Positions 14,865 to 59,799 of a stretch of 64,000 nucleotides of DNA are shown in pieces. How positions within the stretch are numbered: position 1 is the first letter of the stretch; the number at the start of each line of letters is the position of its first letter. The stretch is from Alphaproteobacteria bacterium (lineage in GTDB: Bacteria > Pseudomonadota > Alphaproteobacteria > Rs-D84 > CACZYB01). Made by a program: the position numbers and the translations under genes. The DNA is taken from assembly GCA_017938435.1 (NCBI GenBank), contig JAGBBO010000008.1, forward strand, positions 143,344 to 207,343, given 5' to 3'. The notes beneath the pieces were generated by a model. It was not told the origin of the DNA. It did no database searches and worked only from the letters and a program-made list of their open reading frames with translations.

Positions 14865-14978
14865 ATCAGTTCTCCCAGTTGTAATCATGTCTATTATACG
14901 AAGAATAAAAAGATTTGTCAATTCCTAAATCTTAGTTGATAAAATTAAAGAAAACCCCGCCAAAACGACGGGATTTTG

Positions 14979-38376: not shown

Positions 38377-41247
38377 CTATACTTCTTCTTCAACAACAAT
38401 TTCTTCTTCTGATGTATATTCAACACCTTCATCTTCATCAGAAATATCTTCATCATCTTCTTCAGCATAATATTCTTCATCATTAGAAGTATCATCTTCT
38501 ACATCTTCATCACTTGAAAGAATAAGTTCTTCTTCGTTTTCTGTTGGAACAATAGATACTATTTCTTCTGAGTCATCTTCCATTACAACTTCTAAATCTG
38601 CTGGCATTGTAGTTGCAACTGTATCAACATCCTCATCCTCATCATCCTCTTCAACATCATCTGTTGTAACAGTAGCTATTTCTGAAGAATCTTCTTCTTC
38701 ATCAATTTCATCTTCGATAAAATCTTCATCATCTTCCTCTGGAATATTTGCAAGTTCTTCATCTTCTTCAATACTTTCTGTAGTTACAGCAGCAACATCA
38801 TCAGAATCCTCGTCAACTATAGCAACATCTTCTGTTTCATCATCGTTTTCATCAGAAGAGTTCAATTCAGCGACTTCGTTTTCTTCTACTTCTGAAACTT
38901 CTTCTGCAGGAAGGACAACAACATTTTCACTTTCTGCATATTCCTTTGTGAAATCCGTTACTATTTCAGTAGAATCTTGATTTACTATCTCAGTATCATC
39001 ATCAGAATAGATGCTTTCCTGATAAACAATTTCTGTTGTCGCTGTCAATGGGATAAGAGAAGCCTCTATTTCCATATTATCTGCAACAATAGTTTCTGCT
39101 TCATCTTTTTCAGCTATAGCCGAAAGAACTGCTGCCGCACCACCTTGTGCCTGGATTGCATTATAAACTCTTGCTAATACTTCTAATTTAGCGAGTGGAC
39201 GACCCAAAACATCAAGTTCATTTTCAATCGCAGCATATAATGCGGTTGCTGTGCTATTTGCATATTCATATTTCATAACAAATTCGTTAACAATATATTC
39301 ATAGAAAGCATAGTATGCATTAGTATAAACTCTTAACAAATATTCATCGTTAGCATACTCTTCATAGTTGATATCTGATTTCAAAGTATAATCACTTTCG
39401 TAATACGCATCATAAGTTGCATTACGGAAATCATTCCAATAATGATTCATTTTTTCAAGTTCTGCGATTTTCGCATCATCTTCCAATGTAAAGAAATTAT
39501 CTTTTAAATAAGCAAGTAATGTTAAATAGTTATCACCAGCAAGAACATTATTTACATATTCAGTTTTTGCTATTTGCAAAGCAGATAATTCTGAAGTTTC
39601 ATCTTCATCTTCTTCAACATCGTCATTTTCTTCTATTTCAACAGATTCTATAACAACTGTTTCTGGTTCTTCTTCATCAATTTCATCTTCGATAAAATCT
39701 TCATCATCTTCCTCAGGAATATTTGCTAGTTCATCTTCTACAACAACCTCCTCTTCTACAACAGGCTTTGGATCCACCTTTTTAGGAGCTGGTTTTACAA
39801 TAGGTTTTGGCGCAACCTTCTTTGGAGTTGGTTTTGCAACAGGTTTTGGAGCAACAACTACAGGAGCTGGTTTAACATCTTCTTGAATAGGTTCCACAAC
39901 TGGTTCTGGTGTAGGCTCAACCACTGGCTCTGGTGCAGGTTCAACCACTGGCTCTGGTGTAGGTTCAACAACTTCTTCTTCAAATTTAACTTCTTCTACT
40001 GGTTCAGGAGTTGGTTCAGGAAGAACCTCTTCTTGATAATTTTGTTCTATATAAGCGTTTTCGTTATATGCATTTTCCGAATCGCCAGATAAGAAGAAAA
40101 ATAAACCGAATACTATGATTAAGGAAACCATAATAGATGCAACATACATCCAAACTTTCTTATATTTATCATCAAGAACATCTGTCTTTTTGGCAAATTT
40201 AACATCTGGTGTTTTTGGAGCATCTTGTGCTGTATCATCAACAAAAGGTGGTTTAAACTCTGTTGTTGTTTTTAAATTTTTTTCTGTATCTTTAACCATA
40301 ATAGTCTCCTTCGTAGGTAAAGTTGTTCCTATTTTTTCTCCTGTTTCATTCTTAGCATTTATATTTTGAATTGTCAATTTTTCTGTTTTCCTATTTTCAA
40401 CCTCTTGATTTTTCAAGTTTTTTTGTTCATCAAGAACAGGCGAGGAAACAGAATCATGATAATCAAATCTTGCAAGAATCCGATTTGTATTATCAGATTT
40501 AGAAGCATTTCTTGATTCGATAAGTTTTTTGATTTCTTGTATCTGAATTCTATTCAAAGATAAATTTTCAAAGGCATTTGCAGAACGCTTTTTTGCACGT
40601 TTTATACGACGCTCTGTCCTTTTTAATTTTTCAGTATTATCATACATTTTTTGAACAAGTTCGGCTTTTAATTGAGCATCTGCCTTTTCTGGAAAATTTT
40701 CTTCAATTTCATTTTGTTTTTTCAATCTTTTCGAAAAATGAAGAATTTTCTTTTTCAAATTTTCCAAAGTAACCGTGGCTTTATCTATTGTTTGTGTAGA
40801 TTTGTTATAGTTGAGTAAATTTTCAGATTCTCGCTCATAAGCATTATCAAGAGATAAAATTTCCCGTTTTTCCTTAATAGAATCGAGTAATTCATCAGTT
40901 TGTAATGACACAAAATCCTTATACAAAGACAAATCAGAATAACTTATATCTAATTTCTTATATTTAGTATTTTCCTTTGGTCGAATCTTTATTGGATCAA
41001 TATGAAACTTAGTTTTAAGAATAGAATCCCACTTTGTTTTTGGATTTTTTTCACCCTTTTCTTCAGGTAAAGCCTCTATTATTAGCAAATTATTAGGCGA
41101 AACAATATCGCAAGTATTATCTAAAACAAATATAGGTTCTTCAGCACGAAAATAAACAACAAAAGAGATATCATTTGAAGAAAAATGAAATTCTCGAACA
41201 TCATTATAGACGCTATTTACCAGCCAAAAACTTCTTACTCCCTCCAT
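38377..41247 (-). CDS. Large bitopic membrane protein: basic coiled-coil N-terminal domain, one TM, TonB-like (EP)n/(KP)n spacer, highly acidic repetitive C-terminal region
   Basis: 956 aa. TM helix VWMYVASIMVSLIIVFGLFFFL preceded by Lys-rich sequence, then EPTPEPVVEPAPEPVVEPTPEPVVEP and KPVAKPTPKKVAPKPIVKPAPKKVDPKP. Long D/E tracts follow. AAAGGAGAG SD; the start lies 18 nt after the gcrA stop. Confidence 0.7.
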   Translation of the reverse strand: MEGVRSFWLVNSVYNDVREFHFSSNDISFVVYFRAEEPIFVLDNTCDIVSPNNLLIIEALPEEKGEKNPKTKWDSILKTKFHIDPIKIRPKENTKYKKLDISYSDLSLYKDFVSLQTDELLDSIKEKREILSLDNAYERESENLLNYNKSTQTIDKATVTLENLKKKILHFSKRLKKQNEIEENFPEKADAQLKAELVQKMYDNTEKLKRTERRIKRAKKRSANAFENLSLNRIQIQEIKKLIESRNASKSDNTNRILARFDYHDSVSSPVLDEQKNLKNQEVENRKTEKLTIQNINAKNETGEKIGTTLPTKETIMVKDTEKNLKTTTEFKPPFVDDTAQDAPKTPDVKFAKKTDVLDDKYKKVWMYVASIMVSLIIVFGLFFFLSGDSENAYNENAYIEQNYQEEVLPEPTPEPVEEVKFEEEVVEPTPEPVVEPAPEPVVEPTPEPVVEPIQEDVKPAPVVVAPKPVAKPTPKKVAPKPIVKPAPKKVDPKPVVEEEVVVEDELANIPEEDDEDFIEDEIDEEEPETVVIESVEIEENDDVEEDEDETSELSALQIAKTEYVNNVLAGDNYLTLLAYLKDNFFTLEDDAKIAELEKMNHYWNDFRNATYDAYYESDYTLKSDINYEEYANDEYLLRVYTNAYYAFYEYIVNEFVMKYEYANSTATALYAAIENELDVLGRPLAKLEVLARVYNAIQAQGGAAAVLSAIAEKDEAETIVADNMEIEASLIPLTATTEIVYQESIYSDDDTEIVNQDSTEIVTDFTKEYAESENVVVLPAEEVSEVEENEVAELNSSDENDDETEDVAIVDEDSDDVAAVTTESIEEDEELANIPEEDDEDFIEDEIDEEEDSSEIATVTTDDVEEDDEDEDVDTVATTMPADLEVVMEDDSEEIVSIVPTENEEELILSSDEDVEDDTSNDEEYYAEEDDEDISDEDEGVEYTSEEEIVVEEEV
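38692..38757. repeat. Copy A of a ~66-bp dispersed intragenic repeat (encodes ELANIPEEDDEDFIEDEIDEEE)
   Basis: TTCTTCTTCATCAATTTCATCTTCGATAAAATCTTCATCATCTTCCTC(T)GGAATATTTGC(A)AGTTC, near-identical to 39667-39732. Confidence 0.9.
39667..39732. repeat. Copy B of the ~66-bp intragenic repeat
   Basis: Same sequence as 38692-38757 with 2 mismatches. Confidence 0.9.
39891..39972. repeat. 24-bp tandem repeat (3+ copies) encoding (V)VEPxPEP
   Basis: GGTTCCACAACTGGTTCTGGTGTA / GGCTCAACCACTGGCTCTGGTGCA / GGTTCAACCACTGGCTCTGGTGTA / GGTTCAACAAC... Confidence 0.9.
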
Positions 41248-41265: not shown

Positions 41266-41826
41266 TTATTCCTCTGTTTTATTTTTATCTACAGCCGTGT
41301 TTTTAGATGTAGATGAAGACGATGTTGTATAAGCCATTGCACAATGTTCGAGGCAGTAAGGCCTATTTTTAAATACTTTTTTACCACAAAAACGGAATTC
41401 ATCAGAATTTACATCATCAAGCGGCCAACAACAACGATCAAATGTCAACTCACTCAACGAAACACCCTCCAAAACAGCCTTTTTAGATTGTTTTAGTGAT
41501 GTTTTTTGCGATTCGTTCTTAGTTTTCTCAAATTTTTCTTTTGTTTCAACTTTAGAAACTGGCGTTTTTACTGGTGTTACTTTTGCTTTTTTAACTGATG
41601 TAGAAACCACCTCTTCAACCTTTTTAGAGGTGTTTTTTTTCACTTTTTCAACCTTGTTTGAAGATGTTTTTATTGGTGAATTTCTATTAGAAAGACCAAG
41701 TCTATGAACTTTTCCAACAATAGCATTTTTAGAGAAATCCAAGCGTTTTCCAATTTCTGCCGTAGGCACACCCTTTTCCCAAAGTTGTTTTAGTTTTTCA
41801 ATTTTTTTATCAGTCCAAGTTCCCAT
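41266..41826 (-). CDS. gcrA: GcrA cell-cycle regulator
   Basis: N-terminus MGTWTDKKIEKLKQLWEKGVPTAEIGKRLDFSKNAIVGKVHRLGL. C-terminus CCWPLDD....F.FCGKKV...PYCLEHCAMAY. Both blocks are diagnostic of alphaproteobacterial GcrA. Confidence 0.85.
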   Translation of the reverse strand: MGTWTDKKIEKLKQLWEKGVPTAEIGKRLDFSKNAIVGKVHRLGLSNRNSPIKTSSNKVEKVKKNTSKKVEEVVSTSVKKAKVTPVKTPVSKVETKEKFEKTKNESQKTSLKQSKKAVLEGVSLSELTFDRCCWPLDDVNSDEFRFCGKKVFKNRPYCLEHCAMAYTTSSSSTSKNTAVDKNKTEE

Positions 41827-41897: not shown

Positions 41898-42644
41898 ATG
41901 TTTACAAATAGGATTTTAACCTTTGCAATCTATTTTTCAACAGGTTTTTTTATTCCTGTTTTAAGTAGGTTTTTAATGAAATTTTATCCTTGCTCAATGC
42001 ATAGTTATTTTGGGGATATGTTAAAGTTTTACTTTAATAAAAATAAAATAAAAGTAAAACATTATAATAAAAAATATAATATATTGAAAAAACGGTATTT
42101 TTACAATAAATTATTATGGGGTTTTGGATATCTTTTACTATTCACTGCAATAGATTATTTAGCCCCAATTTATATAAATAAAAATTATCCTTTAACATTT
42201 CTTTTTATCATATTGTTTTTATTAGGTTTTTCTGCAAATATAGATTCTAGATGCAAAATAATCCCTGATATAATTACATTTCCTTTGTTAATGATTAGTA
42301 TTTTTATATCAGTTTATAACACAGAAAATAAAATTTTTTCGCCATTATTTATATCATCTTTTGATAGTATTTTCAGTGCAATAACTGGATATGTTTTATG
42401 TTTTACTTTAGCGTTAATATTTTACTTTAAAAACCCTTATTCATTTGGTGGCGGTGATGTAAAACTAATTTCTGCAATTTCAGCATTTATTGGTATAATA
42501 AATTTATCATGGATTTTATGTTTTTCATTTATTTTTTCTATAGTATTTTTATTGATAAAAAAAGAAAAATATTTAGCCCTAGCCCCTCTAGTTTTTGCAT
42601 CGTTTATCTTATGGCTATTTTTGAAAATTTTATATATTATATAA
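41898..42644 (+). CDS. A24-family aspartic (prepilin-type) peptidase, CpaA/PilD-like, with an N-terminal membrane extension
   Basis: 248 aa, polytopic. IPDIITFPLL (first catalytic Asp context) and GGGDVKL (second catalytic Asp, G-x-G-D-x-K). Confidence 0.7.
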   Translation: MFTNRILTFAIYFSTGFFIPVLSRFLMKFYPCSMHSYFGDMLKFYFNKNKIKVKHYNKKYNILKKRYFYNKLLWGFGYLLLFTAIDYLAPIYINKNYPLTFLFIILFLLGFSANIDSRCKIIPDIITFPLLMISIFISVYNTENKIFSPLFISSFDSIFSAITGYVLCFTLALIFYFKNPYSFGGGDVKLISAISAFIGIINLSWILCFSFIFSIVFLLIKKEKYLALAPLVFASFILWLFLKILYII

Positions 42645-42701
42645 AAACACTTTATTTTTACACTTTTTGTGATATACTCTTATAAGGAGAGAAAGTTAAA
42701 A

Positions 42702-43865
42702 GTGTTTAAGAAAGTATTGATTTCGTGGCTAGTTTTATCAATGGTATTCTTACCAGAGGTTTCTTTTGCTCAAAGACGCTTTTCTTCAAAATCAAAAAAA
42801 ATTACAGGAAAACAAAAAAAAGTTTCTCAAAACAATATCGATGTAGCTATAGAAAAAAATGAAAAAAGTCAAACACTTACTTGTGGAGAAAAATTCAATC
42901 TTTGTATGGATAATGTTTGTGTAAATAATTTTGGAATAAGAAGTAATTGTGATACTTCGATTGATAGTTTTGAAACAGTAGAAAAAGATGGCGAAAAATT
43001 CAGAATTGGTAATGATTTATACACTTTTGCAAGAGGTGTTTGTAATGATACTTTAAAATCTTGTGAACTTAAGGAAAGAAATCATATAGAAACTGTTTAT
43101 AAAGCCAAAATAAAAGAAGATACTTTAACAAAAAGTTATATTGATGCTATGAATGCTGCGTCTGATGAAACACAAAATTCCGTTCTTGAGGAATATATAG
43201 GGTGTATGGGACAATACTGTGGTGCCGCTTTTTCAAATTGTTTTACAATAAAAAATGTTGAAAGAAGAAGTCTAAATTGTTCCAATATCTTGGCAAAAAC
43301 AAGTAGACCGTTGACAGTTAAAAAAATGTTTTATGAAAAAATGGAAGAATTACGAGGAAATTTTTGCAAAAATTCCGGTGGTTATTTAGATTATAATTCA
43401 AGTATTTGTAATATAAAAGTTAGTTATGGTTCTCTTGAAAAAATAAAGGGCGAAGATGGAAAACCTTATTACACCGGAAAAATGGCAAAGGAAGCCGCAT
43501 CAAAATACTTTAAAGTTGGTGAAATTGTAGAGTGTACACAGGAATATTTCAACACAATGAATACCGAAAAGCCTTTTGCTTTGCGTGGAATTTTAGATAT
43601 TGCTATGGGTGCAGTAAAAGCTGTTGCTGGTGTTGCATTGATTGTTATAGGTGTTGTAGGAACTGTATTTTCTTGGGGTAGTGCAAGTGTAGAAACAGTT
43701 CCTATGATAATGAATGGCGCGTCATTGGTATGTAAAGGAGCTGCTTCGACTCTTAATGGTGCAGTAAAATTAAATACCGATGTAAGAAAAGAAAGTGGAT
43801 GTTTTATAAACGGAAATTTTGTATCAAATATGGGTGAATATTTTAAAGTTAATTTTATAAACTAA
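42702..43865 (+). CDS. Secreted Cys-rich protein with a glycine-zipper-like segment, paralog 1 of 4
   Basis: AAGGAGA SD 9 nt before a GTG start. MFKKVLISWLVLSMVFLPEVSFA|QRRFSSKSKKITGKQKK; LCMDNVC and GCMGQYC motifs; hydrophobic GAVKAVAGVALIVIGVVGTVFSWGSAS. Confidence 0.65.
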   Translation: MFKKVLISWLVLSMVFLPEVSFAQRRFSSKSKKITGKQKKVSQNNIDVAIEKNEKSQTLTCGEKFNLCMDNVCVNNFGIRSNCDTSIDSFETVEKDGEKFRIGNDLYTFARGVCNDTLKSCELKERNHIETVYKAKIKEDTLTKSYIDAMNAASDETQNSVLEEYIGCMGQYCGAAFSNCFTIKNVERRSLNCSNILAKTSRPLTVKKMFYEKMEELRGNFCKNSGGYLDYNSSICNIKVSYGSLEKIKGEDGKPYYTGKMAKEAASKYFKVGEIVECTQEYFNTMNTEKPFALRGILDIAMGAVKAVAGVALIVIGVVGTVFSWGSASVETVPMIMNGASLVCKGAASTLNGAVKLNTDVRKESGCFINGNFVSNMGEYFKVNFIN

Positions 43866-43879
43866 AGGTTTTATTGATT

Positions 43880-45184
43880 ATGTATAACTTATTGAAAAAA
43901 CAATATAATATTATAATAAAGTTAAGTTTGATTACAACTTTAACTATTGCTTTTTCTGAATATGTAAATGCTCAGAGAGGAAGTAATGCAAAAAGGAATG
44001 CTTCTTCTAAATCATCAAAAATAAAAAGAAATAGAAATCAAAACTCAACGACAAAAACAAGAACTTCAAATATTGAAAATACAAGTAAAGAGGCAATCCC
44101 TGATACATCAAATATAACAAAATATAATTGCGAAACTTTGTATAACAAATGTATGAATCAAACTTGTTATAAAGAAAGTAATGGTAGATGTGATTGCAAT
44201 AATACTTCTGTTTTTAATCAAGCCGATGAAAAATGTAAATACATATACAATGCTTGCCCAAATCTTGCTGACAACATTATTAGTATGTATAAAAGAAATG
44301 CAAAATCTGACTGTTCAAGTTTTGCAATTTCTGATATAAAAAATACAAATGTATCTATAACAAATATATTATCAAATCTTATCTCTTGTATGAAACCAAA
44401 GTGTAAATCCAAATCAAATGAATTTGTTGGTTGCTTTGATGAGGATAATTTTGAAAAAAAGTTTGAAGTATGTAAATCCACATATACTGGAGTTTCAGAT
44501 ATCGCATTACTAAAATCAATGTTTAAAAACAACCTTAACGAATACAAAAAGAAATATTGTGATGAAATATATGGAACTATAAAATCTGATGGCGAATGTT
44601 ATTTAAACATAGGTATTGGTGCATCATTTAAAACCATATCTAAGATAAAAGAATTTAAAGTTGGAGATCATGTGTCTTGCTCGGAAAGTGATTTTGGAAC
44701 AAAACTTAGTGAAAATAAATCGCAGAAGATTAGACATATAAAAGAAATAGTTTTAACAGGACTTGATTTTGTCCAAAAAGGTTTAAGTATTGCATCAAAA
44801 ATAGCAAGTGGGAAAAAAGAAGGTCACGGAAAAGAAGCTGAAAAAAAATATCTAACAGATGAAAATGGAAATAAAACAAATCAATTTATGGAAGTGTATA
44901 AAGGGTCTGGGGAATTGATTTCAACAAGAGATTGGAATGATAATTTAGAAATTGGACTTGAAGGATTTAACGCTCTTGCTGGAAGTCAACATTTAGCTGG
45001 TGCGATTATAGGTATTGACGCATTGAATAATCAAGATTTTTCGTATTCCGGTTATTGTTATGTTATAAAAGGAGATACCGTGAAAGAGTTATTTCCGGCT
45101 AGTGATGATTACTATTATAAACTTCGTTGGGGTGAAAATTGGACATCTAGTTCCTTTATAAAAGATGAAGGAGGCGAACAATGA
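43880..45184 (+). CDS. Secreted Cys-rich protein with a glycine-zipper-like segment, paralog 2 of 4
   Basis: Signal peptide ...AFSEYVNA|QRGSNAKRNASSKSSKIKRNRNQ; KCMNQTC and SCMKPKC motifs; FKVGDHVSCSESDFG block. An alternative TTG start is at 43874. Confidence 0.65.
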   Translation: MYNLLKKQYNIIIKLSLITTLTIAFSEYVNAQRGSNAKRNASSKSSKIKRNRNQNSTTKTRTSNIENTSKEAIPDTSNITKYNCETLYNKCMNQTCYKESNGRCDCNNTSVFNQADEKCKYIYNACPNLADNIISMYKRNAKSDCSSFAISDIKNTNVSITNILSNLISCMKPKCKSKSNEFVGCFDEDNFEKKFEVCKSTYTGVSDIALLKSMFKNNLNEYKKKYCDEIYGTIKSDGECYLNIGIGASFKTISKIKEFKVGDHVSCSESDFGTKLSENKSQKIRHIKEIVLTGLDFVQKGLSIASKIASGKKEGHGKEAEKKYLTDENGNKTNQFMEVYKGSGELISTRDWNDNLEIGLEGFNALAGSQHLAGAIIGIDALNNQDFSYSGYCYVIKGDTVKELFPASDDYYYKLRWGENWTSSSFIKDEGGEQ

Positions 45185-46743
45185 AAAAAGTCAGTTTTAT
45201 TGTCTTGTCATTATTGCTTTGCTTTGAAGTCGATGAAGTTGTTGCAAAAGCAAAAAGTATAAGAAAAGCCTCATCCAGACCTAATGGAAAACGAAGTGCA
45301 GGAAGAGCAAGTAAAAATATAGTCAGAGAAAACAATAAATCTAATGAAAAAACAGAAGAAACTTCTATACAAGAAGTAAAAACAGTATTAGATAGAGCAT
45401 CTTGCGATTCAGAATACACAAGATGTATGAATAAAATTTGTGCAAGCGAATCATTAGGCAAATGCGTTTGTTACGAAGATAGAACTTCAAATAGTCCTTT
45501 AACAAACTTCATAAACATTGATGGTATGAAAGTTAAACAAGGTTTTGAAACTTTTGAATATGCAAAAAGACAATGCACCGAAGTTTTAGATAAATGTATG
45601 GAAGATAGACGATCTGTTACTGAAAAATATAAAAATTTAGTTCAAAGAGATTGTCTTATGTTATCAAAAAACGAAGCAGAAAAAGCCAAAGGAATCGCAG
45701 GAGATTTGCAAGAATTAAAGACTTGTTTAAAAGATGCTTGTACCGTAAAAAATATTGAAGGTTTTGAAGATTTTTCATTTCCAGAATATAGTCTTTGTTT
45801 TAATGAAGCATATGCAAAATTTAGTATTGATGCTTATTGTTCAAACATTGTTGCAAAATCTTCATCTCCTCTTGGCTTAAAACAAATGTTCCTTGATGAA
45901 ATGGCTTTGGGTAGAGAGCGTTCATGTAAAATTATGAATGGCATATTATCAAATGACCGAAAAAAGTGTTATGTAACTGTGGAATATGGAAAAAACAAAG
46001 ATATAATAAAAGCATCAAAGAAACTTGCCGTGGGTGAATATATGACTTGTGCCGCAGATGCATTCGATGCAAAACAATCCGATTCGTGGGAGAAAAAACA
46101 AAAAGATGTAAATAATGTGCTATCCCTTACAGCATCAGGATTTAATGCTGCCGGCGCTGTATTAAGTATTGCAGGGTCAACAGATCCTATTGGAGGATTA
46201 GTTTCATCAGGTATTGATATTGCGGAAGCCGGTGCAAATTTAGGACTTGATGTAAAAGATTTTGCGGATGGAAAAATAGATAACAAATCCATGGCGACAT
46301 CAACAATAAGTAATGTTATGTCTATCACATTAAGTTCTGTATCTTTTGCAAAGGGGGTTAAAGCTGCTGGTGATACGATGAAAACAGCTAAAACACTAGG
46401 AAATGCTGGAGTAAACACTGCTAATTTAGTCAATAATGCAGATGGTACATTTACTGAACTTTCAAAAGCGGGGACAAATTTAAAAAACACACAAAATGCA
46501 CTTAATGCCGCAAATATAGCAACTACTGTCGCTATACAAGCTACTGATACAACTATGGAAAATATAGCTGATAAAGCTCAAATGCAAGATGAAAAAGATG
46601 CAATTATAAAATATGCCGAAGTTGATCGAGCATCCGGTCGTGGTGTTGTAAATCAAACACTTTCTGAAAAAGGAAATTGCTTTTTAAATAAAGAATGGTT
46701 TGCAACAGAAAATGAAATAATTATGCTTTTGTGGAAAAATTAA
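45181..46743 (+). CDS. Secreted Cys-rich protein with a glycine-zipper-like segment, paralog 3 of 4
   Basis: GAAGGAGG SD; ATGA overlap with paralog 2. ...EVVA|KAKSIRKASSRPNGKRSAGRASK; RCMNKIC and TCLKDAC; YCSNIVAKSSSPLGLKQMF block shared with paralog 1. Long Gly/Ala/Ser/Asn-rich C-terminal half. Confidence 0.7.
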   Translation: MKKVSFIVLSLLLCFEVDEVVAKAKSIRKASSRPNGKRSAGRASKNIVRENNKSNEKTEETSIQEVKTVLDRASCDSEYTRCMNKICASESLGKCVCYEDRTSNSPLTNFINIDGMKVKQGFETFEYAKRQCTEVLDKCMEDRRSVTEKYKNLVQRDCLMLSKNEAEKAKGIAGDLQELKTCLKDACTVKNIEGFEDFSFPEYSLCFNEAYAKFSIDAYCSNIVAKSSSPLGLKQMFLDEMALGRERSCKIMNGILSNDRKKCYVTVEYGKNKDIIKASKKLAVGEYMTCAADAFDAKQSDSWEKKQKDVNNVLSLTASGFNAAGAVLSIAGSTDPIGGLVSSGIDIAEAGANLGLDVKDFADGKIDNKSMATSTISNVMSITLSSVSFAKGVKAAGDTMKTAKTLGNAGVNTANLVNNADGTFTELSKAGTNLKNTQNALNAANIATTVAIQATDTTMENIADKAQMQDEKDAIIKYAEVDRASGRGVVNQTLSEKGNCFLNKEWFATENEIIMLLWKN

Positions 46744-46802
46744 AATAATGCTTTTATTTATAAAACAAATGTGATAAAATTTATTTTGATTTAGGAGAAA
46801 AT

Positions 46803-47939
46803 ATGTTTTGTTTGAGAAGAATTTTAGTTAGTATCTTGATTATTGCATATCCTTTGGCTTTGCAGTCTGATTATGCTTTGGCTAGAAGAACTTCTAAACG
46901 AGCATCAAAAAAGAGTTCTAAAAAGAAGACTAAAAGGGCTTCGAAATCTAAATCTATAGAAAAAGAAGAAATTTCTTCAGTTATAGAAGAAAGTGTTTCA
47001 AATGGTGGTATAGTGTCAGTTTCAACGACAGAAACGACAGCTACAACAACAACTACTACTCAAGCATCTTCAACAGCAAATGTTGCTACAGATACTTCCG
47101 CTTCTGATGAAATAGGAACTGTCGTTTCGGGTGAAATTCAAGACATGTCAAAAGATGAAAAATGGGAAGAATTTAGAATTTGTATGCAGACAAGTTGTGC
47201 AGGAAGTGATGAACAACCAAACAATGTTGAATGTTATAAAAGTTTGACTTTTGATAATGTGTTTATGAACTGTAAAATGTTGGTTGATGAAGATAAGCGT
47301 GAAGCTTTTCGTAACTACTTTACAGGTCCATTTATAAGAAATGAAAAGAAAACATTCTGTGAAGGTGATCTGTATGGCGGAAAGTTTGATGAAGTTTCTG
47401 GAAAATGTGCAATAACTGTTAAATACACAAGACCTGCATACAATGGACAAAAATTTCATTGTGCAAAGGAATCAAAATCTCTTACATGGTATATTGATAA
47501 CAGAAATTATGTTTGTGACGCAAGTTTGTTTAATGTGGAAAACTGTTATCAAGATAGTGAAAATTACACTTCTGCTAAAATAGAGGCTATTACTGGCTCA
47601 CTTCAACTTGTTGGTGCAGCTGCAACTGGTATCGTTGCTGGTATAAGTGCAGGAAAACAAATGGTTAATACTTCTGTAAAGACAGAAGGAACAACAACAA
47701 TAAATGCCGATGGAAGCAAAACAACGACAGCAACTGTTTATAATAAAGAGAAAGCTGGTGTTTTGGCAGGAGTGCAAGCTGGATTACAATCTAGTTCCGG
47801 ATTGCTTACAAGTGGTGCGAGTGATGTTGCTACTGCTATGATTTTAGCAAATGAGAAAGGAAAACAGATATTCGGTGTTTGCAATTTGCCAAATGGTGAA
47901 GTTATTCAGGAAGGTAACTCTATAAAACTTTCGTGGTAA
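46803..47939 (+). CDS. Secreted Cys-rich protein with a glycine-zipper-like segment, paralog 4 of 4 (shorter Cys domain, Thr-rich linker)
   Basis: AGGAG SD. ...DYALA|RRTSKRASKKSSKKKTKRASKSKS; ICMQTSC; GSLQLVGAAATGIVAGISAG...AGVLAGVQAGLQSSSG; ends ...KLSW. Confidence 0.65.
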   Translation: MFCLRRILVSILIIAYPLALQSDYALARRTSKRASKKSSKKKTKRASKSKSIEKEEISSVIEESVSNGGIVSVSTTETTATTTTTTQASSTANVATDTSASDEIGTVVSGEIQDMSKDEKWEEFRICMQTSCAGSDEQPNNVECYKSLTFDNVFMNCKMLVDEDKREAFRNYFTGPFIRNEKKTFCEGDLYGGKFDEVSGKCAITVKYTRPAYNGQKFHCAKESKSLTWYIDNRNYVCDASLFNVENCYQDSENYTSAKIEAITGSLQLVGAAATGIVAGISAGKQMVNTSVKTEGTTTINADGSKTTTATVYNKEKAGVLAGVQAGLQSSSGLLTSGASDVATAMILANEKGKQIFGVCNLPNGEVIQEGNSIKLSW

Positions 47940-49215: not shown

Positions 49216-49518
49216 AAAAAAGGGACTTTTCTGTTGCTAGGAAAGTCCCAAACCCCACTTTAAGGGTTCTATATCCTTAAAGAATTTGGTTCGCTAAACT
49301 GCTATTAAGCAGCCATTGCGAAAGAACGATTATCATTTGCGTTCATTTTTTTTGACCCGATTGAAAGTCGGAATCATCACTTGATACACCTTAATCCTTT
49401 ATTGTATCCGTCGATGCTATTTTACCCCCGTATATCTTTTTGGTGGAGGTATGGGGTACCGCCCCCCAGTCCGAAATACCTATTCCAATTAAGATTTAGT
49501 ATCATAGTCATTACTGAC
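49216..49518 (-). ncRNA. ssrA: Two-piece (circularly permuted) tmRNA gene
   Basis: Read on the minus strand. The acceptor piece ends TGGGG-GGCGGTA-CCCCA (T-arm) + TACCTCC + A + CCA (CCA at 49443-49441). An 11-nt spacer follows. The coding piece starts GGGGGTAaaatagcATCGACGG at 49429. The acceptor stem GGGGGTA/TACCTCC contains a G3:U70 pair. The tag ORF GCA AAT GAT AAT CGT TCT TTC GCA ATG GCT GCT TAA encodes ANDNRSFAMAA (49340-49305). A terminator hairpin plus T6 ends the gene at 49250-49216. Confidence 0.9.
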
Positions 49519-49524
49519 GCTACT

Positions 49525-49553
49525 ATTATAAGCAAAAAACAAACTTTTTTCAA
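49525..49553 (-). promoter_or_regulatory. Promoter of ssrA
   Basis: Minus strand reads TTGAAA, a 17-nt spacer, then TATAAT. Confidence 0.7.
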
Positions 49554-49632
49554 GAGCAATTATTTCTCATCCTTTACTATTGGCTTTTGTAAAAAATTAT
49601 GGTATAATTATTGAAAAATTATGAGGGAAAAA

Positions 49633-50491: not shown

Positions 50492-52303
50492 TTATTTCTT
50501 TGCACCGAAAGAAAATCTTATATCCAAATCGCGAGCATCACTTGCATTTCTACCTTCTATTCTAACAACTCCAACAGCTTCTTCTGGATTACCATTGTTG
50601 CCAAAATATTGGAAATCTGCTTTTTCCAAGCTATTATCACCGACACGCATATCTTGGTCTGTTATATTTTTGTCATCAATTATTGCATCTTTTGATCCAT
50701 CTTTTTGTTTTGTTACAGTAATGGTGTAAGAATCATCAAAATCTGCAACTAACTTTTCTTGGATATTTTCATTTGGAGTTAATGACAAGGTAACAGAACC
50801 TGAAATATCAATAGCTTCATCAAATGCACCTTCATCTTGATTACTTCCTAATGTAACGCCTCCAAAAGCTTTTCCTTTAAATGTTATATCATCAGAAATA
50901 TTATTAATATCAATTTTATAATCAGAATTACCACCTGCAAAAGCATAACTTTCTGATCCTACATCATCTCCATTTTTTATACCATATTTTTCAAAGGCAT
51001 CTGATGCAAGTGTATTTTGTATCGTTATATTTCCAAATTGAGAATATGATAAATCAACTGTATTTCCGGCTAGCTCAATCTCAGTATCAATTTCAATTTT
51101 ATGATTATCAATAAAAGATAATGCAAAACCGTTACCTATATCAATAGATTTATTTTTTGCAATAGCTTCTGCTATATCTTCCTTTGTTATTTTTTTTACT
51201 TCTTCCCAGGCTTCTTGACCTTCTTCATCATAACGACCAGTTTTCAAATCTACAAGGTAATCAGAAAATTTTTCATCAGTAAGGACTTGGAATGTTTCCC
51301 AAAGGTTATCTGCATTAAATTCTGCTTTTCCTGTATAATTTCCGTTTTTATCAGAAGCAAAAGCTGGAATTTCAAATTTTTCCTGAAATTTTCCATCTTT
51401 TGAAAGAAGAACTGTGTTTGCAAAAGTGTATGTTTTACTGTTTAATGCAGTTTGAATACCGTTAACTTCTTTAAAATCTGAAAGATTAAAATCTGTATAA
51501 ATTGTTGATTTATATTTTGTTCTATCTTTATCTTCTGGATTATAGTATTCTGCAAAATCCTCATCCATATCATTAGTTAATCTTATACCTGTCACAGTAT
51601 TATTTTTATCAGTAATGAAAGACATATTTTCTAATTCATATTTTGAAAAATCAACATCAACTTTTTTAAAATCGCCGTTCATTTTTTCTTGCACAATAGT
51701 TTTTATATCATCTACTGTTTTATCAATATTTTCAATAAGTTCATCCATAGATATTTCTGTATTTGAAACATCAATAATATTACCCATTTCAAAAGCCTTT
51801 ATACCCTGAATCAAAGTGTTTTTTGCTACTTCTTCTTTTCCTTGGGATTTAAGGGTATCATTGAATTTAGAAATAATAGAAGTTCCTTTTTCAAAAAGTT
51901 TTGATGTCATAGTTAAAATATTAAAACCTTTTTCTATATCAGTAAGTTTTTCACCAGAATTTGCAACAATTAAACCTGATGATGAAACAGATGACCTATT
52001 CACTTTTCTTGAACTTGCACTTCTATTTGTTTCTTCTGGAGATGATATTGCTGTTTTATATGCTGTTTCTATAGCATCATAATTTGATATATCTATTGCA
52101 GTTCCAATATTTTCTTCAGCTTTTGAAATAATAGATGTTAAATTATCTGATTTAACAGAAAACACTTTTTGCGAAGCAGCTCTTTGTTCTGCTACTGATA
52201 ATGTTGGCTTTGTAGAACTAGGCAAAGTTGAAACAGGTGAATTTCCACCACCACAAGCAGTAAGTGTTAAAAGTAATGCGATTGAACTAACTTTATTTTT
52301 CAT
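50492..52303 (-). CDS. Lipoprotein with a TbpB/fHbp-type C-terminal beta-barrel-like region (candidate Slam/T11SS-dependent surface lipoprotein)
   Basis: MKNKVSSIALLLTLTACGGGNS is a lipobox followed by a Gly-rich tether. The C-terminus ...FKGKAFGGV...ADFQYFGNNGNPEEAVGVVRIEG....DIRFSFGAKK resembles the ...G.FYG..A.E.gG.......a.FGAKK ending of TbpB-like barrel domains. Confidence 0.6.
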   Translation of the reverse strand: MKNKVSSIALLLTLTACGGGNSPVSTLPSSTKPTLSVAEQRAASQKVFSVKSDNLTSIISKAEENIGTAIDISNYDAIETAYKTAISSPEETNRSASSRKVNRSSVSSSGLIVANSGEKLTDIEKGFNILTMTSKLFEKGTSIISKFNDTLKSQGKEEVAKNTLIQGIKAFEMGNIIDVSNTEISMDELIENIDKTVDDIKTIVQEKMNGDFKKVDVDFSKYELENMSFITDKNNTVTGIRLTNDMDEDFAEYYNPEDKDRTKYKSTIYTDFNLSDFKEVNGIQTALNSKTYTFANTVLLSKDGKFQEKFEIPAFASDKNGNYTGKAEFNADNLWETFQVLTDEKFSDYLVDLKTGRYDEEGQEAWEEVKKITKEDIAEAIAKNKSIDIGNGFALSFIDNHKIEIDTEIELAGNTVDLSYSQFGNITIQNTLASDAFEKYGIKNGDDVGSESYAFAGGNSDYKIDINNISDDITFKGKAFGGVTLGSNQDEGAFDEAIDISGSVTLSLTPNENIQEKLVADFDDSYTITVTKQKDGSKDAIIDDKNITDQDMRVGDNSLEKADFQYFGNNGNPEEAVGVVRIEGRNASDARDLDIRFSFGAKK

Positions 52304-52555: not shown

Positions 52556-52645
52556 GGAGAGGTGGCAGAGTGGTTGAATGCGGCGGCCTCGAAAACCGTT
52601 ATGGGGGCAACTCCATCGGGGGTTCAAATCCCTTCCTCTCCGCCA
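52556..52645 (+). tRNA. tRNA-Ser (anticodon CGA), CCA encoded
   Basis: GGAGAGG acceptor stem, D-arm GCAGAGTGGTTGAATGC, anticodon loop CTCGAAA, long variable arm TATGGGGGCAACTCCATC, T-arm GGGGGTTCAAATCCCTT, then CCTCTCC-G-CCA. Closely parallels E. coli tRNA-Ser(CGA). Confidence 0.92.
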
Positions 52646-52732
52646 TAAATGCTATAAGTTTTTGAATTTTCAAAATTTTATTTTCAATTTAGTATCAGTT
52701 TTTGTTAAAAAGGGCAAAAAGTGATACAGCAG

Positions 52733-54697
52733 ATGTCAAAAAATCAAAGATTATTTAAGCGAAATAATATTTTTTATTTGAGGGTTTCTATACCTCGAAA
52801 TATGGCTAAAATCCTTGGGGTTAAAGAGATAAAGAGGAGTCTTAAAACCTCTTCGTATGATGAGGCTTTAATAAGATTGCGCAGTGATACAGCAGATATA
52901 GATAAAATGATAGTTGATTTTAGTAAAAAAATATCTCATTCTTTATGTGAGGAGATAAAGAAAATGGAGATAAATGAATTTCGTGACAAAAGGTTTTTAG
53001 TTTTAGAAAAAGCAGAATTAGATAATGTTATATATGAAAGATTTTCTAATCTATATGTCTTTTATAAAATGATTTGCGACATTAAAGAAGATAAAGAAAG
53101 ATTAGAAAATGAAATAAAACGACATTACAAATACAATTATTTTGACTATGATTTGAATAAATATGATAAGTATATTATTGAAACTTTAAGTAATAAATTT
53201 ATTACTGCCGCCCCACTTCATCATAGAGAAAAATTCGCAATTGAAGAAAAAGTTATAAATGATGTAAAAAATGGAAAAATACTTTTAAGAGGCTGTAAGC
53301 CATACATGCCTTGTGAATTAGAAAATATGTATAAAATACATTATGAAGTATTTGATAATATTAAATACCCTAACCTTCTTTTTAATGAAAATGTTTATAA
53401 TCTTAAAAGTCTTCCATTTGAAGTAAGAGATAGTTTTATTTATATTGATACACATTACAAAATTCTATATGAAGATTACTTTATAAAGGGAAAAAATATA
53501 AAAGACTTTGATTTCTCTTATGAATTAAAAGAATGGGAGGAAATTTATAGACTTAAAAACAATATAGTTAAACAAACTGATTTTGCTAAAAGGCTTGAAA
53601 ATCTAAATAAACAATTTAAGTTAAAATATTCATCTTGGTATGAGTTATTTCAAGAAATGTGGAAGAAAAAGAAAAATGAAAGACCGGATATAAGCCAAGA
53701 AAGTTTTAATAATTATAAAAGAGTTATTGCCCTATTCTTTCAATTATTTAATACCAACAAAATAGAAGATATAACAAAAGAAAATTGTTTAACTTATATA
53801 GAGGATTATTTATACAGAATCCCACGAAATTATACAAAAATTAAAAGATATCAATATTTATCAGCAATGGAATTATTATTAAAGGAGGGAGATGTAAAAA
53901 ACAGATTATGTAAGAAAACTTTACAAACCTATGTAACTCCTATTAAAGAGATTTTTCATTATGCTTATATACATGATTTAGTTGATAACGATTTTTCTTC
54001 TATTCTAAAATCGCCAACAGTAACAAGACATGATAAATTAGAAACAAGAACAGTATTTTCAAAGGCTGATATTAAAGCGATACTTGAAAATTTACCACCA
54101 GCAAATCAAAATCCAACTAACTTTTTTGTACCATTGATAGCAATGTTTTCTGGTGCTCGCTTAAACGAAATATGTCAATTGACTGTTGATGATATTGGTA
54201 GAGAAGGACAGGTATATTATTTTTATATAAATGATAACAGTAATGTAAAATCTGTAAAAAATTCATATTCTATAAGAAAAGTTCCAATTCATAATATGCT
54301 CATTAAACTTGGTTTTTGGGACTATGTAAAATATAGAAGAACCGATACAATGTGTAATAGAGTATTTAAGGATGTTACTTATAACGAACACAATAATTGG
54401 GGAGGACTTTTCTCAAAGAGATTCAGTAGATTACTTGATAAAGCTAAAATTAAAAGAAATACTGATGAAGGAAAGAAATGTTTTCATTCATTTAGACATA
54501 CTTTTACTACCCAAGCACAAGAATGTGGTATAAGTACAGAATTTCGACATATTATATGTGGTTGGCAACAAAACTCAATTGGAGAAAGTATTTATGGAAA
54601 TCATGTTAAACTATCAACTATAAATAAAGAACTTCAAAAAGTAGAGTATAAAGGATTAAAGGTCGCATTTAATAAATTAAAAAAATGGAAACCATAA
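52733..54697 (+). CDS. Tyrosine-type site-specific integrase (unusually long, ~650 aa)
   Basis: N-terminus KRNNIFYLRVSIPRNMAKILGVKEIKRSLKT (arm-type domain). C-terminal catalytic residues FSGARLNEICQL (Arg), HSFRHTF (H-x-x-R) and ..GESIYGNH (Tyr). An alternative GTG start is at 52721. Confidence 0.85.
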   Translation: MSKNQRLFKRNNIFYLRVSIPRNMAKILGVKEIKRSLKTSSYDEALIRLRSDTADIDKMIVDFSKKISHSLCEEIKKMEINEFRDKRFLVLEKAELDNVIYERFSNLYVFYKMICDIKEDKERLENEIKRHYKYNYFDYDLNKYDKYIIETLSNKFITAAPLHHREKFAIEEKVINDVKNGKILLRGCKPYMPCELENMYKIHYEVFDNIKYPNLLFNENVYNLKSLPFEVRDSFIYIDTHYKILYEDYFIKGKNIKDFDFSYELKEWEEIYRLKNNIVKQTDFAKRLENLNKQFKLKYSSWYELFQEMWKKKKNERPDISQESFNNYKRVIALFFQLFNTNKIEDITKENCLTYIEDYLYRIPRNYTKIKRYQYLSAMELLLKEGDVKNRLCKKTLQTYVTPIKEIFHYAYIHDLVDNDFSSILKSPTVTRHDKLETRTVFSKADIKAILENLPPANQNPTNFFVPLIAMFSGARLNEICQLTVDDIGREGQVYYFYINDNSNVKSVKNSYSIRKVPIHNMLIKLGFWDYVKYRRTDTMCNRVFKDVTYNEHNNWGGLFSKRFSRLLDKAKIKRNTDEGKKCFHSFRHTFTTQAQECGISTEFRHIICGWQQNSIGESIYGNHVKLSTINKELQKVEYKGLKVAFNKLKKWKP

Positions 54698-54858
54698 AAT
54701 TTAACACCTAAAATCTTTACCATTCCCCTATTTTCTGGGGAGTTTTTTTTCATTTTTACACACTTCTCTATGTCAATATTTATATTTTTCCAGCGAATAT
54801 TGAGAATGATTTTTCATATCCATATCATCGTTCATATAAGCAAAATAGGAGATGAAAT

Positions 54859-55416
54859 ATGAGAAAATTACTTAAATTTATAGTGTCGATTTTTAACAGA
54901 ATAATCCTTAAATTTCCCCATAAAAAAGCCGTGAATAACAAAGAAATTAAACCTAACCCCCAGCCAATTAAACAAGAATATAAGCCAGCATTAAAACAAA
55001 TGCTTATAGATTTTAATGGAAACTTGGCGATTACTTTTGCTTTCAATAAGGAGGCTTCGTGTGGGATAACCACAGATTTAATTGAAAAAATAATCCGTAA
55101 ATGGAATTGTATGTTTTTCAGCAAAATATATGGGGCAAGGTTTTACAAACATTATAAAATCAAAAATATTCACACCATAGAACATTTGAAAAGTAATATA
55201 CATACTCACTCTGTTTATAAAATTGAGGATGAAGAGTATATCAAAGACCCAAAGGCTTGGATTTTGAAATACGAAAAATTAGCCAATAAACTGTTTAACG
55301 ATTTATGGTCTACTGGCACAGTATTTATGGATAAAATCCGTGATGAAGGTTGGTTTGACTATATGATAAAAGAAAACCATTCTCGTGAAGACTTGTCTTA
55401 CTTCATCCTACCATAA
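54859..55416 (+). CDS. Hypothetical island protein with a possible HUH-endonuclease-like motif order
   Basis: AGGAGA SD. LAITFAF ... NIHTHSVYK ... WFDYMIKE occur in the order of rolling-circle Rep motifs I, II (HUH) and III (YxxK). This is suggestive only. Confidence 0.4.
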   Translation: MRKLLKFIVSIFNRIILKFPHKKAVNNKEIKPNPQPIKQEYKPALKQMLIDFNGNLAITFAFNKEASCGITTDLIEKIIRKWNCMFFSKIYGARFYKHYKIKNIHTIEHLKSNIHTHSVYKIEDEEYIKDPKAWILKYEKLANKLFNDLWSTGTVFMDKIRDEGWFDYMIKENHSREDLSYFILP

Positions 55417-55449
55417 ATACTTATAAAGAATTAAAATAGGAGATAAATT

Positions 55450-55728
55450 ATGAATAGCAGACATTATTTTGGCAACGAAGATGAAGTTCAAGAGGCTCTT
55501 AAACAACTTTCCAATGGAGCATATGATATTCCAAAAACTTTGTATATAGTAAAAGGGTCAGACGCTCAACGATTAGTTCCTCATTTACTACCAGCAGATT
55601 ATAACCATTATGTTTGGTTAAAGGAGCCAGAAGAATATATCTCTTATCAACCACTTTTGATTATAGACGACGGTTCATCCTCTTGGTGTAGAGAGGTTTT
55701 GAATGAATTAAAGAAAGATGATAATTAA
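55450..55728 (+). CDS. Hypothetical island protein
   Basis: AGGAGA SD in a context almost identical to that of the previous gene. 92 aa; no motif recognised. Confidence 0.4.
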   Translation: MNSRHYFGNEDEVQEALKQLSNGAYDIPKTLYIVKGSDAQRLVPHLLPADYNHYVWLKEPEEYISYQPLLIIDDGSSSWCREVLNELKKDDN

Positions 55729-55765
55729 AGGGAGCAAAAATACTCTACCTTTACTAGTATTTATC

Positions 55766-55797
55766 ATAAAAAAGACTGTCATATAGACAGTCTTTCC
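55766..55797. terminator. Hairpin terminator between convergent island genes
   Basis: 10-bp stem AAAGACTGTC/GACAGTCTTT with loop ATATA. The A6 upstream gives a T-run on the minus strand. Confidence 0.65.
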
Positions 55798-55817
55798 AGT
55801 TAAACAACATATAAGGA

Positions 55818-57863: not shown

Positions 57864-57882
57864 TTCGAATCCTTTCATAATT

Positions 57883-59217: not shown

Positions 59218-59237
59218 TAGTATTATTTCTTCACAAA

Positions 59238-59531
59238 TTATTTAGCTAAAAAATCAATAATTTTTTTGTTATTCTCCAAAATTTTATCTTCATTGTTAAA
59301 ATATAATTTTACTCTCTTATTAAAATCATCTCTATTATTTACGACAATTCCATTTATTATAGATATCAATAAATCATATCTTGTATCTAAATATATCTTT
59401 CTATTAAATATAATATTCTTGAAATTTTCATCATTTGAAAAATTTTTAACTAATTTATTTATCATTTTAATTTGATAAGATTTTATTTTGTTTATTGTGC
59501 GTTTTATAAAAAATAGTTTTATTAAATTCAT
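59238..59531 (-). CDS. Hypothetical small protein, first gene of the Slam operon
   Basis: AAAGGA SD. 97 aa, Lys/Asn/Ile-rich, no signal peptide. Confidence 0.4.
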   Translation of the reverse strand: MNLIKLFFIKRTINKIKSYQIKMINKLVKNFSNDENFKNIIFNRKIYLDTRYDLLISIINGIVVNNRDDFNKRVKLYFNNEDKILENNKKIIDFLAK

Positions 59532-59799
59532 TTTACTAATCCTTTCATTTTATTAAATTCGCTGTTTCCTGCCGGTTTTAAGTAGATAAGTATCTACAAA
59601 AAATCAACCTTTGGAATCAACACAATAAGCACATATTCTTTATATGTTAGAGATTGCCTTAAAACCGTTGTTTTATAAGGATTTAGGAAGAAAAACCTTG
59701 CTTTTTTAGTGGTGTTTTTATATAATGATTTTAATTGTTCGTTAGGATTCAATAGTATTTTCTCAAAAACTAATAAATACAATAAAAGGAGATACTATT

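Follow-up and report, generated by a model that had tools for sequence, protein, structure and literature searches.

The window considered here, the whole 64,000-nucleotide stretch of chromosomal DNA from a low-GC alphaproteobacterium (25-34% GC per 2-kb bin), carries at 41898-47939 a gene for a family A24 peptidase followed by four genes, P1 to P4, whose products are ancient, non-redundant paralogs of a single undescribed family of exported, cysteine-rich proteins. The cluster is an operon passed on by vertical descent and confined to one clade of uncultured Alphaproteobacteria from animal guts. A function for this combination of paralog family and A24 gene is read only from the anatomy of the proteins and the synteny of the genes. 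On that footing we put forward tentatively, as a reading that could well prove wrong, that the predicted products assemble in the envelope as a hetero-oligomer stapled by disulfides, that its hairpins enter a membrane, and that it is coupled in function to the A24 protease.

The five open reading frames (ORFs) are packed tightly on the + strand between gcrA and a convergent rnpA. Their coordinates, and the ATGA shared by the P2 stop and P3 start, were borne out as given in the initial annotation of the stretch; the start codon of P1 at 42702 is GTG, not ATG; it has an AAGGAG ribosome-binding site and agrees with the starts of the orthologs. The genes are as follows.

41266-41826, - strand: gcrA, a cell-cycle sigma-70 cofactor, Pfam PF07750, E 5.9e-32
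41898-42644, + strand: A24 peptidase gene, 248 amino acids (aa), Pfam PF01478
42702-43865, + strand: P1, 387 aa, subunit with predicted membrane hairpin
43880-45184, + strand: P2, 434 aa, full head, 16 Cys
45181-46743, + strand: P3, 520 aa, full head, 16 mature Cys
46803-47939, + strand: P4, 378 aa, diverged paralog, 10 mature Cys

The gcrA gene is divergent to the A24 gene and lies 71 bp upstream of it. Intergenic gaps from A24 through P4 are 57, 14, -4 and 59 bp, and purine-rich, AGG-containing sites of the Shine-Dalgarno type precede all five starts, most clearly at P1, P3 and P4; the overlap and short gaps, which would couple the downstream genes, fit a single transcript. No terminator-like site was found from the A24 gene to the P4 stop, in AT-rich DNA where terminator and promoter scans do no better than on shuffled sequence. 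Housekeeping genes surround the cluster (secA, dnaE, eno, rpsI/rplM, prfA, hisS, rodZ, dus, ftsB, rnpA and corA). Antisense ORFs of 100-170 aa lie on the - strand inside P2 (44218-44547), P3 (45969-46490) and P4 (47148-47459); their translations are of low complexity and unsupported, and they are most likely frame artefacts of an Ala/Gly/Ser-rich coding strand.

The initial annotation had described four diverged paralogs of a secreted, cysteine-rich type with glycine-zipper-like segments, and BLASTP, hhalign and a family hidden Markov model (HMM) confirm the relationship, with P4 a truncated member. BLASTP joins P1 to P3 (E 2.7e-17), P2 to P3 (1.2e-16) and P1 to P2 (1.7e-7), and does not detect P4 from P1-P3. 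Comparison of ortholog sets by hhalign relates P2 to P3 with a probability of 99.8% and P4 to P3 at E 1.6e-4. Because a family HMM built from P1-, P2- and P3-type sequences only finds P4 (E 6.6e-14 among the 230 ORFs of the window), P4 is a true family member; its residues 128-389 align to HMM positions 174-429, and a Thr-rich spacer takes the place of the first half of the head. The same search of those ORFs found no family copy besides P1-P4. P1 is under purifying selection, the ratio of nonsynonymous to synonymous substitution (dN/dS) being 0.22 against a 96%-identical relative.

The paralogs share a common plan: a Sec-type signal peptide, a polybasic disordered linker, a Cys-rich alpha/beta head, a helical hairpin insert and a short C-terminal beta tail. 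Parts delimited in the window, all on the + strand, are these.

42702-42770: P1 signal peptide, MFKKVLISWLVLSMVFLPEVSFA then Q; basic n-region, hydrophobic core, small residues at -3/-1
42771-42881: P1 polybasic linker, Ser/Lys-rich; 10 Lys+Arg in 37 residues, isoelectric point (pI) 10.5
43973-44128: P2 basic linker stretch, Ser/Thr/Asn-rich, disordered
45250-45402: P3 basic linker stretch, Ser/Thr/Asn-rich, disordered
46884-47180: P4 basic linker stretch, Ser/Thr/Asn-rich, disordered
42882-43571: P1 Cys-rich alpha/beta head, residues ~61-290, two CM-x3-C motifs
44096-44725: P2 head, equivalent of the P1 head
45382-46080: P3 head, equivalent of the P1 head
~47145-47552: P4 head, second half only, equivalent of the P1 head
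43578-43775: P1 helical hairpin, helices 293-323 and 332-358 in an AlphaFold2 (AF2) model; the first is a hydrophobic Gly-zipper, VKAVAGVALIVIGVVGTVF
43776-43865: P1 C-terminal beta tail, GCFINGNF...YFKVNFIN; strands 365-369, 372-376 and 380-382 (AF2)

The leaders are of the n-h-c type, with a hydrophobic core of 9-14 residues and small residues at -3/-1, kept in the orthologs of all four paralogs; small residues there after a short core are typical of a signal peptidase I site. Cleavage is predicted (slash) at SFA/Q in P1, VNA/Q in P2, VVA/K in P3 and ALA/R in P4, so that the AxA-like ends first noted on these leaders are upheld by conservation. The polybasic spacer described behind them is also there: the first 40 mature residues of each paralog carry 10-14 Lys+Arg, and 2-3 precede the hydrophobic segment. 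Predicted local confidence (pLDDT) falls below 50 in the linkers of the P1 and P3 models, in P1 over residues 20-49. An Arg or Lys occurs within the first three mature residues of all four paralogs and all their orthologs.

Thirteen Cys columns are common to the 57 family members, which are 17-57% identical. An extra pair, C95 and C158 in P3, is present in all 40 P2/P3-type sequences and none of the 17 P1-type ones, and the C-terminal column (P1 C367) is present in 56 of the 57. Conserved mature cysteines are even in number in every paralog, the C-terminal Cys included (14 in P1, 16 in P2, 16 in P3, 10 in P4), the fifteenth Cys of P1, C344, not being conserved; these counts fit 5-8 disulfides and a bond from tail to head. 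The recurring CM-x3-C motif of the initial annotation is present, except that ICMQTSC of P4, listed as a first copy, aligns with the second copy instead. The short Cys-containing tails are likewise real, and the examples originally given left out P2, which has GYCYVIKG...YKLRW; that of P3 is conserved as GNCFLNKEWFATENEIIMLLWKN, and that of P4 reads GVCNLPNGEV...IKLSW. Three short strands make up the tail in the P1 model and, at lower confidence, in that of P3.

The insert, which runs from the last Cys of the head to that of the tail, has a length and hydrophobicity that are specific to each orthogroup, given here as the median length and the best 19-residue Kyte-Doolittle average.

P1 orthogroup insert: median 86 aa, 1.94 (2.35 in the P1 of the window)
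P2 orthogroup insert: median 114 aa, 1.34
P3 orthogroup insert: median 209 aa, 1.35
P4 orthogroup insert: median ~105 aa, 1.4-2.0

The P1 insert is thus short and strongly hydrophobic, that of P4 a moderately hydrophobic Gly-zipper, that of P3 long, length-variable and amphipathic (whole P3 proteins reach 768 aa in relatives), and that of P2 mostly polar or weakly amphipathic. Hydrophobicity of transmembrane (TM)-helix grade is reached in P1 only (residues 305-323, 2.35), P3 and P4 being marginal and P2 having none, so the membrane-active-looking Gly/Ala/Ser/Val-rich segment first ascribed to the family holds for P1, is marginal for P3 and P4, and fails for P2. At the tip of the P1 hairpin (43665-43700, residues ~322-333) the loop reads WG/SASVETVP and resembles a prepilin cleavage context, with Gly at -1 and Glu at +5. 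The loop is G/SASVE or G/AGSIE in the subclade of the window, with Gln or Asn for Glu in close relatives; other subclades lack the motif and have GGAAKG or longer Gly/Ala loops.

An AF2 model of P1 made from the 57-sequence family alignment has a mean pLDDT of 87.1, with 278 residues at or above 90 and most of the head above 90, and a predicted TM-score (pTM) of 0.56. Besides the hairpin it has helices at 61-73, 104-119, 123-173, 183-197 and 203-224 and strands at 88-103, 236-277 and, C-terminally, 365-382. The model of P3, from 21 orthologs, is poor (pLDDT 54.8, weak outside the head), and its Foldseek results are meaningless. Foldseek with the P1 model found nothing at E <= 0.001 among 350,542 PDB chains; the top matches were B components of tripartite alpha-pore-forming toxins, the best being the SmhB pore 7a0g (E 0.011, probability 0.97). 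The hairpin matches several AhlB chains locally over 66-70 columns, with a root-mean-square deviation (rmsd) of 1.7-2.3 A, 23-24% identity and a probability of ~1.0, and an independent PDB profile search with P1 orthologs aligned P1 298-365 with SmhB 173-236 (E 0.0045). With the modules taken separately, only the hairpin matches the PDB; a PDB sequence profile search with the Cys-rich head returned nothing. In the model, then, the hairpin is SmhB/AhlB-like, and the whole fold is not ClyA-like and has no solved relative.

No family assignment came from other sources, as the initial annotation had anticipated: Pfam and NCBIfam gave no match to P1-P4, Pfam gave no consistent match among 57 family members, and the PDB profiles and Foldseek on the confident model were likewise without a family match. 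The Pfam glycine-zipper families Gly-zipper_Omp, Gly-zipper_YMGG and Rick_17kDa_Anti did not match P1-P4 or the 57 relatives at E <= 0.1. Since neither Pfam nor NCBIfam nor the PDB contains the family, which nevertheless has a confident fold in silico, it probably represents, to judge from the model, a new fold with a toxin-like membrane hairpin. Several familiar classes were tried for P1-P4 and rejected. They lack the conserved lipobox Cys of lipoproteins, a twin-arginine in the n-region as in Tat substrates, and the conserved Gly/Ala at the n/h junction of class III N-terminal leaders, with no N_methyl match; they are largely helical, with only the last three short C-terminal strands, which sets them apart from outer-membrane beta-barrels. 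As ClyA-family toxins they fail on fold, and only a hydrophobic hairpin of bilayer length was found, in P1 alone.

The gene at 41898-42644 is, by its motifs, a divergent and catalytically intact member of family A24 that is not of the bifunctional PilD type. It matches PF01478 at E 2.6e-10 (41.1 bits, cut-off 26.5) and carries the motifs IIPDIITFPLL and FGGGDVKL, with catalytic D124 (IIPD) and D187 (GGGD). D116, P123, D124 and G184-D187 are invariant in 16 orthologs with identity down to 22%. Hydropathy indicates about 7-8 hydrophobic segments, and an N-terminal extension has a conserved YPCxxHS loop with a single conserved Cys. The PilD-type zinc/methyltransferase domain is absent, PF06750 matching neither the gene nor its relatives; PF01478 is the sole Pfam domain listed, in all 37 A24 relatives save one truncated 174-aa fragment. 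No NCBIfam model matched, and a profile search of the PDB detected neither FlaK nor a PilD-like protein, nor any other solved relative.

The established role of prepilin peptidases is essentially to mature type IV pilins and pseudopilins. Motif scan and annotation of the window agree with the earlier observation that the A24 gene has no pilus genes about it and P1-P4 no prepilin leaders: no pilin-like ORF, pilus gene or secretion-machinery gene was found within the 64 kb, and of the window and 25 related loci scanned for G-x4-E followed by a hydrophobic helix, only the locus L019 gave a candidate, a single gene. That gene (15645-16115 of L019, 156 aa) lies directly downstream of the cluster and starts MLSIKNEKG/RSLIEMLGVLAIMSIITVLGV, with G/RSLIE and a hydrophobic helix. 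It narrowly misses the thresholds for N_methyl (18.8 bits, 21.2 needed) and for a GFxxxE domain, and is named GspH-family by NCBI; a search with it returned itself and one close relative only. At least one lineage thus has a canonical A24 substrate adjoining the cluster. At 12907-15477 the same locus holds a fifth family member of 856 aa, which has 27 Cys and ends in a tail like those of the other members. Searching the literature for A24 peptidases with cysteine-rich proteins gave nothing relevant, and a pairing of such a peptidase with Sec-exported paralogs that are rich in cysteine and bear a hairpin is not, to our knowledge, described for any system.

The family is narrowly distributed. 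A word-index search with P3 returned 28 proteins, all orthologs (37-96% identity) from metagenome-assembled genomes (MAGs) and named 'hypothetical protein' at most; one with A24 returned clade orthologs only, with uninformative names. An exhaustive HMMER search with the head profile against 1.84 billion representative proteins gave no more than 61 clusters, of which 56 reach E <= 1e-10, and all well-matched clusters come from uncultured Alphaproteobacteria and sort into the P1, P2 or P3 orthogroup. Among species-representative genomes, eight MAGs carry the family; they come from the rumen and from human (Hadza), vole and other guts. Published genomes of Ca. Enterousia have 39-44% GC, against ~30% in the window. 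Very distant, weak members occur outside the cluster: P0081 (E 1.3e-4, locus L017) and P0082 (E 3.8e-4, locus L023, next to greA). P0081, of 620 aa, is encoded at 10001-11863 of L017, a 54% GC contig, without A24 and beside genes for an OmpA-like lipoprotein and a 129-aa membrane protein. As it stands alone, the family can exist outside the A24 cluster.

Gene order is conserved well beyond close relatives. In the clade of the window, dus-ftsB-956aa-gcrA, then A24-P1-P2-P3-P4, then rnpA, is kept in at least 10 species-level loci. The order gcrA, then A24-P1-P2-P3, recurs in at least 8 lineages with GC contents of 29-59% and differing flanks (L020 being seen to P1 only), among them the following.

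L015, GC 51%: OmpA-872aa-gcrA, then A24-P1-P2-P3, then tyrS
L019, GC 32%: rodZ-782aa-gcrA, then A24-P1-P2-P3-P4like-856aa paralog-pseudopilin
L020, GC 29%: MlaD-gcrA, then A24-P1, then contig end
L021, GC 59%: NUDIX-gcrA, then A24-(ppa fragment)-P1-P2-P3
L022, GC 51%: rpoZ-radical SAM-847aa-gcrA, then A24 (uncalled, found by tblastn)-P1-P2-P3
L024, GC 59%: NUDIX-141aa-gcrA, then A24-P1-P2-P3, then HMGL
L031, GC 55%: gcrA, then A24-P1-P2-P3

Throughout these lineages the A24 protein retains D124 and the motif GGGD187. In every locus with enough sequence upstream of A24, gcrA adjoins the cluster, and A24 is directly upstream of P1 on the same strand throughout, save in L021, where a pyrophosphatase fragment intervenes. 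Because the A24-P1-P2-P3 order beside gcrA outlasts changes of flank and of GC content, linkage of A24 and the paralogs by chance synteny is unlikely; the initial annotation had left open whether the pairing was coincidental or functional. In the relatives surveyed, conservation and A24 linkage are both kept, and no match to a known family emerged.

In the mechanism that we tentatively favour, P1-P4 would be exported by Sec and their heads oxidised on the periplasmic side to a disulfide-stapled form, with the C-terminal strands folding back onto the head. The four paralogs would join through their heads into one hetero-oligomer whose hairpins enter a membrane, with P1 as the hydrophobic component that anchors or nucleates insertion and amphipathic helices contributed by the others; in this it would resemble an alpha-helical pore or translocon built of several components. 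SecYEG should halt transfer at the first P1 helix, and for that reason we would place the assembly first in the inner membrane of the cell itself, heads periplasmic. To be matured or released it would need the A24 protease, which acts on the cytoplasmic face of the membrane.

Several observations weigh against this mechanism. No canonical A24 cleavage motif is conserved family-wide in P1-P4, and Sec substrates do not usually carry such dense positive charge just behind the signal peptide. The hairpin of P1 is amphipathic, not hydrophobic, in L019 and L020, the most distant lineages, so constitutive membrane anchoring is not universal. Foldseek TM-scores of P1 against the PDB do not exceed 0.21, and the rmsd is above 20 A over long alignments. 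Against viral structures the P1 model matches generic transmembrane hairpins only; since such hairpins match too, the likeness to SmhB and AhlB may be convergent and driven by Gly/Ala/Val composition. Finally, one gut alphaproteobacterial order is reported as strict fermenters without quinones (PMC12306168), and if the bacteria of the window belong with these, the disulfides would have no obvious source of oxidation.

Another explanation, which we consider rather unlikely, is that A24 is the ordinary prepilin peptidase of the genome, serving pilins or pseudopilins encoded elsewhere, and that P1-P4 are an unrelated envelope family sharing an inherited gene order without coupling. Prepilin peptidase genes of type IV filament systems are often unlinked to pilin genes, P1-P4 have no class III leader, and at least one related lineage does have a prepilin-type gene. 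The linkage itself cuts both ways: the A24-P1 adjacency (same strand, gaps of 10-120 bp) survives replacement of both flanks, protein identities of ~25-40% and GC contents of 29-59%, L021 being the exception, and translationally coupled downstream genes suit one transcript, whereas gcrA, with no obvious envelope link, is equally tightly linked, so that old synteny can persist here. Against it, too, neither the window nor the other loci, except for the GspH-like gene of L019, hold a pilin-like ORF. Moreover, a published survey of reduced gut lineages reports type IV pili in just one of the three it covers, and not in the alphaproteobacterial one (PMC12306168), which would bear on the window only if it belongs to that order.

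It seems unlikely that P1-P4 are secreted as a multi-component set of toxins or effectors that form alpha-helical pores. After Sec export such proteins would fold and be oxidised in the periplasm and would pass through the outer membrane by a type II or type IV pilus-like route whose pseudopilins need A24, and their hairpins would enter a host, protist or competitor membrane as in SmhABC and AhlABC. The SmhB/AhlB hairpin is the only known element that P1 resembles, and the tripartite ClyA-family toxins (AhlABC, SmhABC, NheABC, Hbl, MakABE) are likewise sets of several diverged paralogs of ~350-500 aa from one operon, with a helical hairpin in each component and hydrophobicity graded between components. 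In AhlB, G176-A201 and V212-L234 form a hydrophobic head that spans both leaflets; the hairpins of AhlC and AhlA are shorter or amphipathic, and a single operon carries the genes of all components (PMC6602965). The hairpin of P1 aligns with that of SmhB and superposes locally on AhlB, its tip is uncharged, and basic residues flank its head-proximal ends. The lineages are host-associated, the paralogs evolve faster than housekeeping genes beside them (29-72% identity, against 67-85% for dus), and A24 would keep its canonical role, L019 having the adjoining GspH-like pseudopilin. Unlike those toxins, however, P1 lacks the ClyA-type helical bundle and any Pfam toxin match, and P1-P4 have a Cys-rich alpha/beta head not found in the toxins, polybasic linkers and A24 linkage. 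In every lineage the cluster is a core-syntenic single copy of strictly vertical descent, not an accessory island, and the examined loci show no mobile-element context. No secretin, ATPase or platform gene lies near any locus, and the hydrophobic P1 helix would probably be held in the inner membrane during Sec export.

A more specific form of coupling appears quite improbable to us: that A24 was recruited from pilins to cut the Gly-rich cytoplasmic hairpin loop of P1, a Sec-exported non-pilin, and perhaps of P4, thereby licensing a disulfide-stapled, multi-paralog membrane-inserting machine. The product would be a pilin-like C-terminal piece, made of a hydrophobic helix and small beta strands and still joined to the head by a disulfide, and the second P1 hairpin helix would have the N-in to C-out orientation of a prepilin helix. 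Very improbable is an arrangement in which the N-terminal segments are uncleaved signal anchors and linkers and heads are cytoplasmic, with Cys binding metal and hairpins dipping into the inner membrane from the cytoplasmic side, in direct reach of the A24 active site: it would suit the positive-inside rule (10-14 Lys+Arg within 40 residues after the hydrophobic segment, 2-3 before), bring the conserved G-(hydrophobic helix) junction that follows the head to the side where the A24 active site lies and remove the problem of disulfides in a strict anaerobe, but small -3/-1 residues after a short 9-14-residue core are kept in all four orthogroups as for signal peptidase I, no CxxC or His-containing metal motif is present in these proteins, cysteines are gained and lost as a pair, and their spacing within helices suits helix-helix staples.

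The envelope assembly coupled to A24 that we favour has partial parallels in other systems. As in type IV filament systems (PilD/GspO/TadV with pilins), an A24 GxGD peptidase with both catalytic Asp heads an operon of related exported proteins, and in L019 a GspH-like pseudopilin is directly downstream; unlike in those systems, the leaders are Sec-type and not class III, no ATPase, platform or secretin gene is nearby, and the peptidase has neither the PilD zinc/methyltransferase domain nor an NCBIfam prepilin-peptidase match. Presenilin and signal-peptide-peptidase (A22, of the same clan as A24) are GxGD proteases that cut Gly-rich TM helices of non-pilin substrates, and P1 offers a Gly-rich helix pair, a mechanistic analogy only. 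Periplasmic adaptors (AcrA/MexA) are also Sec-exported and have an alpha-helical hairpin of variable length inserted in a beta-rich domain, and Foldseek gives weak echoes of them (E 0.2-2 over ~160 columns); these matches are not significant, P1 has no lipoyl/beta-barrel signature or Pfam HlyD match, and adaptor hairpins are soluble coiled coils whereas that of P1 is hydrophobic. The long-term locking of A24 to Sec-exported non-pilin paralogs points either to an unrecognised class of A24 substrates or to an unrecognised dependency in secretion or assembly. In its carriers, uncultured and probably genome-reduced gut Alphaproteobacteria, a conserved membrane-inserting envelope machine would be a plausible key to interaction with partner or host, and proteins with 5-8 disulfides in gut anaerobes raise the question of the oxidation route.

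One neighbour is a possible partner of the cluster.

38377-41247, - strand: 956-aa bitopic protein beside gcrA, no Pfam match

Its N-terminal part is basic (pI 8.9) and is followed by a TM helix at 365-387 and a TonB-like rod at 409-500 of (Glu-Pro)n then (Lys-Pro)n; the C-terminal part is strongly acidic (187 Asp+Glu against 24 Lys+Arg, pI 4.1) and includes two exact copies, at 506-527 and 831-852, of the 22-aa acidic repeat ELANIPEEDDEDFIEDEIDEEE. This part, presumably periplasmic, is charge-complementary to the polybasic linkers of P1-P4. Orthologs lie beside gcrA in L001-L015, L019, L021, L022, L024 and L031.

Elsewhere in the window, a 416-aa ORF without Pfam match lies next to dnaE (28898-30148, + strand), a two-piece alpha-type transfer-messenger RNA is at 49220-49557, and a 603-aa predicted lipoprotein with an LLTLTAC lipobox and no Pfam match is encoded at 50492-52303 on the - strand. 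A tRNA-Ser(CGA) gene at 52556-52645 is followed by one for a tyrosine integrase with a DUF6538 domain (52721-54697), and serine resolvase genes are at 59800-60393 and 60884-61453. Between them a Slam-type surface-lipoprotein assembly modulator (57883-59217, - strand, PF04575) lies directly upstream of a 686-aa ORF without Pfam match at 55818-57878, which is probably its surface lipoprotein cargo; the stretch 52556-61453, Slam pair included, looks like an integrated element.

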